IMG/VR virus record: IMGVR_UViG_3300004463_000262
Coordinates: 1 to 64,000 of that record
DNA length: 64,000 nucleotides
Origin: a virus
Strand: one strand, 5' to 3'
In this document: in pieces, positions 9,264 to 27,416 of the stretch
Numbering within the stretch: position 1 is the first letter of the stretch
Layout of the letters: each line of letters begins with the position of its first letter
The notes under the pieces: model-generated
Seen by the model: only the letters and a program-made list of their open reading frames with translations
Database searches by the model: none
Told to the model about the DNA's origin: nothing
Made by a program: the position numbers and the translations under genes

Positions 9264-9335
9264 GTCCCTGTAGTTCAGCGGAAGAACAACGGTCTTCTAA
9301 ACCGTATGTCGGGAGTTCGATTCTCTCCAGGGATG
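9264..9335 (+). tRNA. tRNA-Arg(TCT)
   Basis: GTCCCTG/CAGGGAT acceptor; ACGGT-CT TCT AA-ACCGT; TTCGA T-loop. Confidence 0.9.
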
Positions 9336-16260: not shown

Positions 16261-16779
16261 ATGCGTGAGAAAGCATGGCAGGAGTACTTCAGATCAGGGG
16301 ACACAGAACCGCTGATCAAGGCGTATTGGGATTCTATTCAATACATGGCGTGGGATTTCAATGAGCGTAATCAGGACGATTTATTCCAGGTAGGATTGCT
16401 CGGACTAATCAAGGCGGCGAAGACCGTCGATGTCAAGCGCGTGAGATCTCTAGACGCTTGGGTGTTTTTGAACGTCCGAGGCGCTATGAGGAATCTCCGA
16501 CGATTCAAGCAGGATTACTCCCTTGATATCCTCTACGATATCACTACAGATGAGGATAGTTTGGAGCGTCGTATTGATCTGAAGATCGCATTGGAGACTA
16601 GATCTATCGAAAAGGCTAGAGGGTATCTGCAAGGATACGAGCCGATGCGAGGAAACCCAGATGACAGCATAGAGAGATATCATCGCGGCAAGATCTCACT
16701 AAGAGCCTTGTCCGATGAATTAGGAATTAGTAAGAGGCAGACTTACAAGCTTCTCGGTAAGCTGCCAGATAGTTGGTAA
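16261..16779 (+). CDS. Sigma70-family sigma factor-like protein
   Basis: Region-2-like DDLFQVGLLGLIKAA...AWVFLNVRGAM and C-terminal HTH SLRALSDELGISKRQTYK; TG-C-TATAAT ends 6 nt before the ATG (leaderless). Confidence 0.75.
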   Translation: MREKAWQEYFRSGDTEPLIKAYWDSIQYMAWDFNERNQDDLFQVGLLGLIKAAKTVDVKRVRSLDAWVFLNVRGAMRNLRRFKQDYSLDILYDITTDEDSLERRIDLKIALETRSIEKARGYLQGYEPMRGNPDDSIERYHRGKISLRALSDELGISKRQTYKLLGKLPDSW

Positions 16780-17332: not shown

Positions 17333-17637
17333 GGGGATGTATTGGTTTCGACGTGGAACTGATGTATCAACTGCGATCCGTGTTGATCAGGCACGTAAAA
17401 GGATCAATCAAATAGAAGCAAACGCCATTAAGAGCGTATCGGCATGGCTTCGCGGTTCAGTCCGCCAGCCTGCCTTGGTTGCAGCATAACCAGGAAACCT
17501 AATATGCTGAGACAGTCGGGAAAGACCGGCACGTAAGTTGCAATATCCGTTGTAAGTTGCTACACTTTACGTAGCTATGATCGTAGTAAGTTGGTACTTA
17601 GGTTGTACGGACGCCGGTTCGAGTCCGGCCATCTCCA
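17333..17637 (+). ncRNA. ssrA: tmRNA
   Basis: GGGGATG-TATTGGTTTCGAC 5' end, G3:U70, 3' GCCGG-TTCGAGT-CCGGC-CATCTCC-A; tag ORF 17418-17489 ANAIKSVSAWLRGSVRQPALVAA*. Confidence 0.92.
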
Positions 17638-17659
17638 TATAACGTGACAGGAAGGAAAC

Positions 17660-17860
17660 ATGGCTAGATTGAGCAAGGTATATGTGGCTTTCTTCCACGA
17701 CAAGGGAAAGCGTTCTTTCGCGACAGAGAAGATTGCTGCCCGTAATTACGAAGCGGCTATGGAAGTGGCCGAGACATGGGCGATCAGCAAGTATCATGGT
17801 CGTGTAAAGGAAATCAAGATCGAGAAGTCCAAAGGAGAGATTCTACTTGGCGACGATTAA
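17660..17860 (+). CDS. Hypothetical protein
   Basis: AGGAAGGA RBS; overlaps the rpsL start. Confidence 0.65.
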
Positions 17861-18239
17861 TCAGTTGGTCAGAAAGGGCAGGAGCAAGCCGAAGCCGAAG
17901 AGCAAGGCACCGGCTCTGGACGCCAATCCGCAACTACGTGGAACCGTTGTCCGCACGATGGCTCTTGATCCGAAGAAGCCTAACTCTGCGAAGCGTCATT
18001 GTTGTCGCGTCAGGCTATCGAACGGCAAAGAAGTGAACGCATACGTCCCTGGTCGTGGGATGAACATCCAGGAGCATCACTCGGTGCTCATTCGTGGTGG
18101 TCGAGTCCCGGATCTACCTGGGGTTCGCTACAAGGTCATCCGAGGCACGATGGATTGCCAGGGTGTCTCCGATGAAGAGGGTAACGTTCCTCGCAGGCAG
18201 AGTCGTTCGAAGTACGGAGTGAAGAAGAACGTCAAATGA
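17847..18239 (+). CDS. rpsL: 30S ribosomal protein uS12 (divergent)
   Basis: [51 protein letters not shown]; AAGGAG RBS and TTG start. Confidence 0.95.
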
Positions 18240-19178: not shown

Positions 19179-19236
19179 ACGAAGGGTTCATATTCTATAC
19201 TCTAATATGAACCTTATCTATTACAGAATAGATAGA

Positions 19237-19659
19237 ATGCCATATAAAGATCCTATTAGACAGAAACAAGCACAACGTGAATCCTATCTTAGGAACAAAG
19301 AGAAAGTTTTGGGAGTAAGGGTCAGGGCGATTCAAAGGAATAAAGAATATGTCTTGAATTATTTGCTGAACAATCCTTGTGTTGATTGCGGAGAAGATGA
19401 TCCAGTCGTGTTAGAGTTTGATCATCTACGAGATAAATCTTGGAATGTTTCTGCTCTAATAAAGAGAACATATTCTACTGATCGTATACAGGAAGAGATT
19501 GAGAAATGCGAAGTAGTCTGTGCAAACTGTCATCGAAGACGAGAAGCAGTTAAAGGTAATCATTTTCGCCTCATTAGCTCAGTGGACAGAGCACGAGCCT
19601 TCGACACTAGAAATTTGTTCGAATCAAACAAGAGACTATATGATGGATACGCTTGGTAG
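19237..19659 (+). CDS. HNH endonuclease
   Basis: MPYKDP...CVDCG...LEFDH...[13 protein letters not shown]; reads through a degenerate tRNA and stops inside tRNA-Arg(TCG). Confidence 0.85.
19568..19638 (+). pseudogene. Degenerate tRNA-Arg(TCG)
   Basis: Shares TAGCTCAGTGGACAGAGC with the intact copy; CT TCG AC loop and TTCGAAT retained but stems broken. Confidence 0.65.
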
Positions 19660-19724
19660 CTCAGTGGACAGAGCGGTGCGCTTCGAACGCACGTCAGTCG
19701 CGGGTTCGACTCCTGCCCAGGCGA
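19650..19724 (+). tRNA. tRNA-Arg(TCG)
   Basis: CGCTTGG/CCAGGCG; GTGCG-CT TCG AA-CGCAC. Confidence 0.9.
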
Positions 19725-19760
19725 TGAAGATGAGTCCTTCCAGGGGTATATGTGGTCTGA

Positions 19761-19991
19761 TCAGGTTAGGATGTTGGCCTAGAAGTAGCCATCATTTAAA
19801 GAGTGGGCGATGGCGGCGGCGGTGCGGCGGGCCGCATCATTTGGGTGGTCGTCGGTAAGCGTATTAGCGAAAGCCTTTGAGAATCAGAAGAATGCCACGG
19901 TCGGAGGACATGGATTCTGTGCGATCTGATGAAGACCAAGGAAACGTCTTTAAGCGTGTAGTCCTTTGGTGTAATAGCACACTATCCTTGA
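19761..19991 (+). ncRNA. RNA containing a 23S rRNA L11-binding domain (H43-H44) mimic split by a ~164-nt insertion
   Basis: GTTAGGATGTTGGCCTAGAAGTAGCCATCATTTAAAGAGT (19765-19804) and GTGTAATAGCACACTA (19969-19984) match 23S nt ~1051-1108 as recalled. Confidence 0.8.
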
Positions 19992-20016
19992 CAGACACTA
20001 TGTTTCGTGATACACT
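19988..20016 (+). promoter_or_regulatory. Sigma70-type promoter
   Basis: TTGACA-17 nt-TACACT with TG extension; 7 nt before GTG 20024. Confidence 0.7.
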
Positions 20017-20023
20017 ACATCCT

Positions 20024-20236
20024 GTGGCACGAAAAAAGAAAGAAGCCAAAAAGGAAGACGTAAAGTTTGCGAAGTACCTTCCGGGTGAAGCACGTTGGAA
20101 GGGTCGAGTGAACAAGACACGTCAAGATCGTTTGGCTATTGATGATAGGGATCGCGTACATAACGCAGATCGCGTAAGAAGTTTTTCGCAGAAGCATAAG
20201 CCAGCACGTTCGGCGGATTGGCTTAAGTTTCGCTAG
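20024..20236 (+). CDS. 70-aa highly basic hypothetical protein (probably leaderless)
   Basis: MARKKKEAKK...; the longer ORF-track start overlaps the structured RNA. Confidence 0.6.
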   Translation: MARKKKEAKKEDVKFAKYLPGEARWKGRVNKTRQDRLAIDDRDRVHNADRVRSFSQKHKPARSADWLKFR

Positions 20237-20261: not shown

Positions 20262-20338
20262 CAGGATGAGGGTGTGCCTGGTTCACCACTCGCCTTGGAC
20301 GCGAGACATTCTCGTGGGTTCGAATCCCACCATCCTGA
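20262..20338 (+). tRNA. tRNA-Pro(TGG)
   Basis: CAGGATG/CATCCTG A73; CTCGC-CT TGG AC-GCGAG. Confidence 0.85.
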
Positions 20339-26053: not shown

Positions 26054-27416
26054 GGATTTGAAGGTTTTTAGCCCGCAGGGTGTGGGTATTGATCAGGGCG
26101 CGGTTGAGCAGATTGAACGCTGCCTAGAGCATCCTAACGCCGTTGCCGGTGCATTGATGGCTGACCATCATCTAGGCTATTCTATGCCTATTGGTGGTGT
26201 TGTCGCCTACGAGGATGCTATTTCTCCTACAGGAGTAGGATTCGATATCGCCTGTGGGAACATGGCGGTCAAGACTGATCTGAATATCTCTAGTTTCGGT
26301 TCTGAGTCTGCCAAGAGTGGGGACATCGTTCCTAATCCTAAGGTATTCAAGGGACTGATGCGTGAAATCCAGCGCCAGGTATCTTTCGGTATTGGTCGTT
26401 CTAACGCGAATCCTATTGATCATCCTCTCTTCGACAATCCTGTTTGGGTTGAGATTGATAACCAGTTTGGTCGTGAGCTAGAGGCTAAGGCTCGCAACCA
26501 GTTGGGTACCGTGGGTTCTGGTAATCACTATGTGGATATTCTCGTTGACGAGAAGGGTGCTCTCTGGATTGCTAACCACTTTGGCTCTCGTGGTCTAGGT
26601 CATACTATCGCTTCTGGCTTTATGGCTGCTGCCGCTGGTAGGAAGTTCACGGATCGCGTTCCTGAGTCCGAGGATGCAGTAGTTCTTACTAAGAATGACC
26701 CTCTAATCTACGAGTTCTACATCGAGGCTATGCAGCTAGCTGGCGAGTACGCTTATGCTGGTCGTGAGTACGTCATCGATCAGGTTCTTAAGATCCTCGG
26801 TGCTGAAGCTGTTTGGTCAGTCCACAATCATCACAACTACGCTTGGCTGGAAGATGGCAAGTGGGTAGTTCGCAAGGGTGCCACTCCGCTAACGAATTCT
26901 CCTGCATTTATTGGAGGTTCTATGGGTGATATCTCCGTGATTGTTCGTGGTCGAACGGCTGGTGGCGAAATGTTGCGCTGGACTCGCACGGAAGATGTTG
27001 GCGCATTGGGTTCTGCGCCTCATGGTGCTGGTCGTATCATGAGCCGCACAAAGGCCGCTGGTAAGTTACGCAAGATGTGGGTATGTCCTAATCGTAACTG
27101 TGGTAAGTTTGAGGAAAGAGCAGTAGCAAATACGCCTGCTTCTGCTGGTTCTCGCTGCCCGGATTGCAACATCGTTTTGCGCAAGGTTCGCAAGCGCGAT
27201 ACCTCTGATGCTGCTATCGATTGGACTGCAACCCGTCAGGATCTAAAGGATCGTGGGATCATTGTTCTGGGTGCTGGTGCTGATGAGGCACCGGGAGTCT
27301 ATAAGCCTCTCGCTGAGGTTATCGAAGCACATCCTAACATCGAAATCCTACATACTCTTCGTCCGCTTGGTGTGGTAATGGCAGGTGCGGATGAATTTGA
27401 CCCTTATGCTGATTGA
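26037..27416 (+). CDS. rtcB: RNA ligase RtcB with zinc-ribbon insertion
   Basis: DHHLGY, GVGFDIACG, GTVGSGNHY, HFGSRGLG, HNHHNYA, RKGAT, GSMG, HGAGR and DEAPGVYK motifs. Confidence 0.93.
   Translation: MANITKDLKVFSPQGVGIDQGAVEQIERCLEHPNAVAGALMADHHLGYSMPIGGVVAYEDAISPTGVGFDIACGNMAVKTDLNISSFGSESAKSGDIVPNPKVFKGLMREIQRQVSFGIGRSNANPIDHPLFDNPVWVEIDNQFGRELEAKARNQLGTVGSGNHYVDILVDEKGALWIANHFGSRGLGHTIASGFMAAAAGRKFTDRVPESEDAVVLTKNDPLIYEFYIEAMQLAGEYAYAGREYVIDQVLKILGAEAVWSVHNHHNYAWLEDGKWVVRKGATPLTNSPAFIGGSMGDISVIVRGRTAGGEMLRWTRTEDVGALGSAPHGAGRIMSRTKAAGKLRKMWVCPNRNCGKFEERAVANTPASAGSRCPDCNIVLRKVRKRDTSDAAIDWTATRQDLKDRGIIVLGAGADEAPGVYKPLAEVIEAHPNIEILHTLRPLGVVMAGADEFDPYAD

Follow-up and report, generated by a model that had tools for sequence, protein, structure and literature searches.

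A family of stand-alone phage RNAs predicted to rebuild the uL11-binding domain of 23S ribosomal RNA around an additional arm

The locus described here lies within a 64,000-nucleotide (nt) stretch of viral DNA, hereafter the window, which comprises positions 1 to 64,000 of the IMG/VR virus record IMGVR_UViG_3300004463_000262 (72,439 bp, with a completeness estimate of 45%). Between positions 9264 and 25702, the window contains 43 transfer RNA (tRNA) matches and a transfer-messenger RNA (tmRNA), all on the + strand and interspersed with small open reading frames (ORFs). Inside this array, at 19761-19991, lies an element composed of the two halves of the GTPase-associated centre (GAC) of 23S ribosomal RNA (rRNA), with an insert between them and a closing stem of its own (Table 1). 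The GAC, formed by the top of helix 42 (H42) together with H43 and H44 (E. coli positions 1051-1108), is the minimal domain that binds the ribosomal protein uL11 and thiostrepton. A preliminary description of the sequence had pointed to a stand-alone, split L11-binding domain with an insertion of about 164 nt; the sequence is as described and the insert measures exactly 164 nt. We hold with great confidence that the element is a stand-alone non-coding RNA (ncRNA) gene of a phage family, the ends of which rebuild the uL11-binding GAC domain, both as to identity and as to fold.

The resemblance to rRNA is close and confined to the element. Over positions 1057-1102, the window is identical at 42 of 46 positions to the true 23S rRNA found in a Paenibacillus phage record (L002), the four differences being U1065C, C1072U, C1092U and U1101A. 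The E. coli numbering used here was placed on the element by means of the Rfam large-subunit (LSU) consensus and the alignment to the 23S rRNA of L002. The Rfam bacterial LSU model aligns through its positions 1096-1145 to 19769-19817, with 15.1 bits (E 0.012) when 351 nt are searched and 20.2 bits (E 1.2e-5) over the whole 72-kb record, both scores being below the gathering score of 50, which is to be expected of a piece of 49 nt. This is the sole LSU-like match in the record, which indicates that the GAC copy stands alone; no continuity with the rest of the 23S rRNA (H42, flanking domains) was found, the flanks being phage tRNA genes. The flanking strands 19761-19768 and 19983-19991 pair with one mismatch and one bulge. 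The pairing of the flanks with each other and of the insert ends, both noticed at the outset, hold in the window and across the family, and the expected U-G pair produced by C1092U is likewise present.

Relatives of the element were sought by BLAST against named phages and subsequently by degenerate pattern scans of viral contigs, species genomes and metagenomes. BLAST revealed the split arrangement in Yersinia phage fHe-Yen9-04, with a 172-nt insert at the same site and flanks that differ from those of the window yet are again self-complementary. A degenerate pattern of the 5' half matched 16 loci in viral contigs, corresponding to 14 complete split elements, one cut by the locus end and one true rRNA. 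With an extended pattern, which excludes uninterrupted rRNA, 11 loci were found in 185,579 species genomes (10 true 23S variants without insert and one element) and at least 80 loci in metagenomes, where the matches listed comprised 45 complete elements, three cut by contig ends and 32 of rRNA type. A pattern anchored in the 3' half matched at least 120 loci in viral contigs, and 96 of the 114 scored matches in newly fetched loci had a GAC-like 5' half, defined by no more than 11 mismatches in 36 at a distance of 29-369 nt upstream of the 3' half. The pooled scans yielded at least 157 elements. The preliminary description had made much depend on homologues in LSU or phage sequences that keep both halves, and at least 128 such distinct elements were recovered once duplicates were removed; counts out of 128 given below refer to the unique elements among the matches listed in the scans.

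In the scans made, the elements are restricted to phages and viral sequence. Among the carriers in culture are Cronobacter phage GAP32, Pectobacterium phage CBB, Serratia phage BF, several Erwinia phages, the Xanthomonas phages XbC2, XaC1 and XacN1, the Yersinia phages fHe-Yen9-03 and fHe-Yen9-04, Acinetobacter phage ME3, Aeromonas phage 4_4572 and Pseudomonas phage pf16, so that the family extends over phages of Enterobacterales, Pseudomonas, Xanthomonas, Acinetobacter and Aeromonas, together with many uncultured lineages. Each of four complete phage genomes examined has a single copy, as does the record of the window. The only element from the species genomes (L025) is situated on a 204,271-bp contig of a Bacteroidales metagenome-assembled genome (MAG) and is identical over the compared region to the viral loci L013 (204,214 bp) and L085; this contig probably represents a phage genome that binning assigned to the bacterial MAG. 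Separately, five metagenome contigs (L032, L050, L066, L086 and L106) were considered as candidates for an rRNA carrying the insert and were rejected: in L066 a short rRNA end is joined to unrelated, coding-like sequence, which was read as a chimera, and in the other four little or no rRNA continues past the GAC 5' half. Each of the five resembles an assembly chimera, the break being at one and the same conserved position.

Covariance models set the family apart from the genomic background and connect it with rRNA. The model R2, built from 38 other elements with the window excluded, gave a single hit in the 64 kb, at 19759-19992 (80.1 bits, E 1.4e-24). The model R1, which includes the window, assigned to phages outside its training set 101 bits (pf16), 90 bits (4_4572), 88.5 bits (Cronobacter phage GAP32) and 78 bits (fHe-Yen9-04), and 45-61 bits to true 23S rRNAs, the latter scores demonstrating homology between the family and the genuine rRNA domain.

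The fold is substantiated by covariation. In a MAFFT alignment of 39 members (A1), 92.6% of the cells of the named structure were paired, compared with 69.9% after shuffling, and none of 500 shuffles reached as high; both sides had changed in 18 of the 24 pairs, and partners slid by 1-3 columns gave 35-54%. The closing stem showed changes on both sides at eight of its nine pairs in A1, and its eight domain-adjacent positions were paired in 70-99% of the 128 elements (39-75% when shuffled), with all four Watson-Crick types represented. H43 was paired in 100%, with both-side changes at four of six pairs, and the 1082-1086 pair occurs as U-A, C-G or A-U. In the 85 elements found through their 3' half, for which the 5' half is therefore unbiased, the pairs 1057-1081, 1058-1080, 1062-1076, 1064-1074 and 1082-1086 covary and are formed in 81-85 of the 85 elements; G1059, U1060, G1063 and C1075 are invariant in all of them, and U1061 varies freely, as it also does in rRNA. 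Signals of tertiary structure are present as well. Positions 1072, 1092 and 1099, which form a base triple in the rRNA domain, occur in the family as C-C-G (121 elements), U-U-A (six) or U-U-G (the window alone), without any mixed forms. Position 1056 covaries with the 1082-1086 pair, and triads have been described at the equivalent hinge of the Haloarcula GAC (PMC1919483). When the window was left out of the alignment (A2), RNAalifold recovered unaided H43 and the upper part of H44, together with the closing stem and the stem at the base of the arm. The covariation analysis of homologues suggested at the outset thus revealed compensatory changes in every helix as well as in the tertiary triple, and this combination indicates that the RNAs have been selected to adopt the rRNA fold.

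The pairing of A at 1101 with U1090, which the preliminary description considered possible, held in part: the pair is possible, being U-A in 124 of the 128 elements, and shows no Watson-Crick covariation. Two variants are hints on the pairing at this junction. The pf16 copy (L225, 1187-1383, between tRNA-Asn and tRNA-Pro) has G at the 1101 equivalent, giving U.G with 1090, and L099 has C at the 1090 equivalent together with a CUUG linker.

The insert, which we refer to as the extra arm, occupies the same site in all 128 elements and varies from 29 to 369 nt. It opens with a basal stem of 3-5 bp in 103 of the 128, the four basal pairs being formed in 98, 95, 91 and 64% of elements (37-61% when shuffled), and its 3' end is formed by a linker that reads TTTG in 123 elements, TTTA in four and CTTG in one. 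Beyond these constant parts the arms are diverse and fall into 74 similarity groups; the smallest (L118 and L205) consist of a 25-nt hairpin and UUUG, and modules such as GGTAAGG (27 arms) and TGCGAAA (19 arms) recur. The arm of the window shares two sequence modules with L181 only; a 16-mer common to these two arms matched 39 viral loci, and the element was absent from all 38 new ones. No Rfam family matched the window arm, and its internal structure is a minimum free energy (MFE) prediction on which nothing here relies.

The family also bears a signature of its own, of which the UUUG linker and the arm are likewise part. At the 1101 equivalent, A is present in each of the 43 unique elements that the 5'-half patterns retrieved, whereas every true rRNA of the same scans has T, and the rRNA of enterobacterial hosts (L019 and L024) differs from the family at 1088-1090 as well as at 1101. 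Since the signature of GAGU and A at 1101 is unlike enterobacterial host rRNA, the elements are not fresh captures from the host, and on comparison of these sequences the family appears as its own lineage rather than the product of repeated capture. The earlier suggestion of a purpose-built mimic rather than a random scrap of rRNA is therefore strongly supported by the recurring architecture, the compensatory changes and the signature. As an observation apart, the true 23S rRNAs of Patescibacteria (L022, L023, L026 and L028-L030) contain the U1072/U1092/A1099 variant of the triple, as do six phage elements.

Table 1. Coordinates of the element, its parts and neighbouring features in the window
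Feature	Position	Strand	Remarks
tmRNA	17333-17640	+	114 bits
HNH-like ORF	19207-19659	+	weak, E 0.005, below the Pfam cut-off
Upstream tRNA (Arg by ARAGORN)	19650-19724	+	Rfam tRNA 56.3 bits; ends 44 nt before the domain
Closing stem, 5' strand	19761-19768	+	replaces the end of H42; sequence not rRNA-like; pairs with 19983-19991
GAC 5' half	19769-19804	+	equivalent to E. coli 1055-1090; Rfam LSU match, R2 alignment
H43	19771-19795	+	loop 19779-19787
A1067 equivalent; U at 1072 equivalent	19781; 19786	+	within the H43 loop
1082-1086 turn	19796-19800	+	
GAGU (1087-1090 equivalents)	19801-19804	+	reads GAGT in DNA
Extra arm	19805-19968	+	164 nt exactly; between the 1090 and 1091 equivalents
Arm basal stem	19805-19808 GGGC with 19961-19964 GUCC	+	4 pairs
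Single-stranded linker UUUG	19965-19968	+	conserved in the family
GAC 3' half	19969-19982	+	equivalent to 1091-1104; top of H44
U1092.G1099	19970/19977	+	U.G in the window
H44 loop	19971-19976	+	A1095 equivalent at 19973
Family-specific A at 1101 equivalent	19979	+	
Closing stem, 3' strand	19983-19991	+	partner of 19761-19768
ORF	20000-20236	+	starts 9 nt past the closing stem; no Pfam match
Next downstream tRNA (Pro by ARAGORN)	20262-20338	+	279-nt gap from the domain
RtcB RNA ligase gene	26127-27377		after the tRNA array

The association with tRNA genes seen in the window recurs across the family. A tRNA or tmRNA lies within 2 kb of 80 of the 128 elements, and the flanking tRNA genes are on the same strand in 401 cases and on the opposite strand in none. 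In 32 elements, a distance of 6-32 nt separates the end of the nearest upstream tRNA from the domain (no more than 19 nt in 30 of them), and in 24 the nearest downstream tRNA follows the domain at 8-22 nt; the spacing is bimodal, and the closely spaced tRNAs abut the 8-bp closing stem, an arrangement that fits co-transcription and release by tRNA-processing enzymes. In GAP32-like phages, the element is located away from any tRNA. The commonest protein-coding neighbours are metallophosphoesterase-like genes (eight loci), HNH genes (seven, including that of the window), GIY-YIG genes (six) and the CCA-adding enzyme (four).

With regard to function, the best explanation overall, to which we give about an even chance of being correct, is that the family ncRNA acts as a mimic of the GAC away from the ribosome. 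The RNA would be transcribed with the surrounding tRNA genes and freed by tRNA-processing enzymes, a route that we consider likely. Folding like the stalk base, it would then take up host uL11 and become a ribosome-free copy of that base; such binding is, in our estimation, somewhat probable. The isolated 58-nt rRNA domain binds uL11 tightly, and uL11 is, to our knowledge, the one protein known to bind the isolated domain in this way. The uL11 gene was found neither in four complete carrier genomes nor in the record of the window, so any bound uL11 would be derived from the host. The copy of the stalk base could titrate uL11, or a factor that needs to dock there, and a net role as decoy or sponge has a chance that we place at, or a little short of, even. 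The extra arm may serve as a handle that marks the mimic off from real rRNA, and would provide some members with further modules. The preliminary description listed decoy or scaffold roles towards L11, RelA, GTPases, thiopeptides or rRNA-targeting toxins as candidates. Several purposes can be envisaged as possibilities: the titration of uL11 with an effect on RelA activation, the capture of factors at the stalk base, and the absorption of toxins directed at the GAC. A more elaborate version, in which a portable imitation of the stalk base loaded with uL11 would trap the stringent factor RelA, one of the translational GTPases, or a toxin (from abortive infection or from a competitor) directed at the GAC or the sarcin-ricin site, seems to us rather unlikely. 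If this trap existed, it would be the first RNA counter-defence to impersonate the ribosome, and an arms race would have left its mark in the fast-evolving arm.

Several observations weigh against the proposal of a folded, uL11-binding mimic. At the level of the fold, the MFE of the window element alone is unremarkable (z = -0.70) and does not reproduce H43 and H44, a result which is uninformative for a domain folded through tertiary contacts. RNAalifold also offers a rival pairing, in which the linker UG joins the equivalents of 1102-1103 and the base of H44 would be changed; these positions are invariant and carry no covariation signal for or against it. With such a pairing, competition between the linker UG and G1087 for C1102 could make the base of H44 a switch. 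At the level of function, the bases of the surface loops are relaxed, with A at 1067 in 72, G at 1068 in 61 and A at 1070 in 70 of the 85 elements found through the 3' half, and with variation at 1068-1070 and 1096/1097. In rRNA, these loop nucleotides contact factors and thiopeptides. Their relaxation weakens the case for a decoy of factors or thiopeptides and leaves that for binding of the uL11 C-terminal domain untouched; judged from the aligned sequences, the conservation pattern would favour the fold and the surface for the uL11 C-terminal domain over the bases that contact factors and thiopeptides. An arbitrary stem takes the place of the H42 kink-turn and the uL10 site, and assembly of the complete stalk (uL10/bL12) on this RNA is therefore not expected. 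Simple sponging of uL11 accounts neither for the obligatory arm nor for the invariant UUUG, and no conserved partner protein gene accompanies the element (the best cluster is present at 8 of the 128 loci).

Among the rival explanations, we regard as unlikely that the RNA is an anti-defence decoy, namely a pseudo-substrate or tight-binding trap for a toxin of the host or of a competitor (for instance an ADP-ribosyltransferase or nuclease) acting on the GAC or the factor-binding site, by which the ribosomes would be shielded during infection. The 43 tRNAs, the tmRNA and RtcB in the island fit a theme of repair and replacement. The toxin Tre23 ADP-ribosylates H44 of the GAC around 1095-1098, according to PMC8661411, and the H44 loop bases G1093, U1094, A1095 and A1098 are invariant in all 43 elements found through the 5' half; however, 1096 and 1097, which are within the stretch targeted by Tre23, vary. 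A hairpin resembling another classic toxin target, the sarcin-ricin loop, with an S-turn and a GNRA loop, was identified in three of the 128 arms (L151, L168 and L215), all longer than 300 nt, at arm positions of about 225 of 314 in L151 and about 223 of 313 in L168, where shuffled arms gave 0.2 on average and 3 at most. On this sequence likeness we lean towards the view that these three RNAs may imitate both halves of the factor-binding site, but no such hairpin was found in the arm of the window. Pseudo-ToxI is a phage precedent of RNA mimicry against a toxin (PMC3475682). A stoichiometric decoy would nevertheless be a weak answer to a catalytic toxin. We know of no defence system that targets the GAC during phage infection, which also counts against this explanation.

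It is decidedly improbable, in our view, that the GAC fold, whether or not uL11 is bound, does no more than provide a very stable platform or protective cap and that the variable arm does the work, in the manner of Y RNAs or of a cassette. The wide range of arm lengths, the 74 similarity groups and the recurring modules speak for such a scaffold, but the GAC is conserved to its tertiary contacts and surface loops, beyond what a scaffold needs, and the 25-nt hairpins of the smallest arms indicate that an elaborate arm is not needed. In addition, a blastn-short comparison of the 128 arms with four rRNA-holding loci gave chance-level matches on both strands, so the arms have no above-chance similarity to rRNA, sense or antisense. 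A search for a Ro60/TROVE domain in the record of the window was negative.

Within the ribosome, the GAC is in contact with the incoming tRNA at its elbow, on which A1067 stacks; a free GAC could associate with tRNA elbows, or with ternary complexes, and serve the tRNAs of the phage as chaperone, sensor or sponge. The tight and exclusively same-strand association with tRNA arrays is consistent with this tRNA-directed role, which we nevertheless find very unlikely: GAP32-like phages carry the element away from tRNAs, the elbow-stacking base is not invariant, and no conserved element of specifier type was found in the arms.

Even less probable is a cis-acting ribosomal protein leader on the ORF at 20000-20236, or a captured fragment of host rRNA or an assembly artefact. 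Classical ribosomal protein leaders mimic rRNA sites and the ORF begins immediately after the closing stem, but the downstream gene is not conserved in the family, the neighbours are mostly tRNAs, the top neighbour cluster holds no ribosomal protein, and the conservation of the element where this ORF is missing argues against a leader; capture or artefact is contradicted by the presence of the element in complete genomes of cultured phages and by a signature unlike host rRNA.

That the element is a relic of a mobile intron with rRNA exon flanks, or a spliced RNA, is scarcely credible: like group I introns, it has an insertion that interrupts conserved rRNA sequence, comes after a U and has G as its last base (124 of 128), with homing-endonuclease genes nearby (HNH at seven and GIY-YIG at six of the 128 loci, the HNH-like ORF of the window among them), but unlike them it has no catalytic core and its exon context is not an rRNA gene, no Rfam intron matched 19700-20050 at E up to 10 or 18 other loci at E up to 1, inserts as short as 29 nt leave no room for a self-splicing core, the flanks pair in a covarying stem of their own rather than running on into rRNA, none of the ten true 23S genes of the genome scan has an insert at the site, and the bulge-helix-bulge register is not conserved. 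Intron and splicing were rejected on the Rfam, size and bulge-helix-bulge results, and the excision of the insert suggested in the preliminary description was not supported, the arm being constant in the family.

Comparison with known systems places the proposed GAC mimic in context. With the GAC of 23S rRNA it shares the helices, the loop sequences and the tertiary covariation, both within the triple 1072/1092/1099 and between 1056 and the 1082-1086 pair, but it is free-standing, has its own closing stem, an obligatory arm with a UUUG linker and A instead of U at 1101, lacks the H42 kink-turn and the uL10 site, and is partly relaxed in the loop bases that contact factors. The leaders of ribosomal protein operons are similar in that a non-ribosomal transcript copies a protein-binding site of rRNA; whereas they act in cis before cellular ribosomal protein genes and are loose copies, the phage element is near-exact and has no conserved downstream gene. 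We know of no ribosomal protein leader that binds uL11. Pseudo-ToxI is also a phage RNA that imitates a host RNA, but it mimics the repeat of an antitoxin RNA (PMC3475682), while the element described here mimics a functional centre of the ribosome. ROOL and GOLLD are large structured phage-associated ncRNAs situated beside tRNA genes and possibly co-transcribed with them, and resemble the element as structured phage RNAs of unassigned role next to tRNAs (PMC5737381); they have no relation to it in sequence or structure, being in Rfam 15 without a match, and the GAC family is smaller, with a core derived from rRNA.

Genes for tRNAs, tmRNA and a few ribosomal proteins are known from phages, but we found no published free-standing, near-exact copy of an rRNA functional centre encoded by a virus. 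A large family kept down to its tertiary contacts must matter for infection, and it offers a handle on the manipulation by phages of the stalk base, uL11, the stringent response and ribosome-directed toxins, for which cultured carriers exist, and, for structural studies, a naturally occurring GAC variant that folds by itself and already has an arm. The element is mis- or unannotated in GenBank phage records: none of four records (fHe-Yen9-04, pf16, 4_4572 and GAP32) has an RNA annotation at this position, and other carriers have no feature or a 'hypothetical protein'. It is absent from Rfam 15, in which no family matches it beyond the weak LSU hit. A description of the family was not found in the full-text literature, a coverage that excludes supplements and subscription journals, and unnamed RNA candidates in the supplements of PMC10690425 could include it; as far as found, the family of phage GAC-mimic RNAs has not been described before.

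Some further features of the locus deserve mention. A promoter-like sequence, TTGACA-17-TACACT with 10 of 12 matches and a TG, occurs at 19988-20016 on the + strand, overlapping the 3' strand of the closing stem and the start of the ORF at 20000-20236; promoter and terminator scans of the region gave the same site counts as shuffled sequence, and the site may be due to chance. The HNH-like ORF spans a weak tRNA-like match at 19568-19637 (29.4 bits) and the start of the tRNA at 19650. Within the tRNA array, a 130-aa ORF at 17847-18239 (+) encodes a phage uS12 (Pfam PF00164, ribosomal protein S12/S23, E 5.6e-32), a term absent from the main text of a survey of virus-encoded ribosomal proteins (PMC6375957). 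A 172-aa ORF at 16261-16779 (+), also in the array, matches sigma-70 region 2 (E 3.3e-7).

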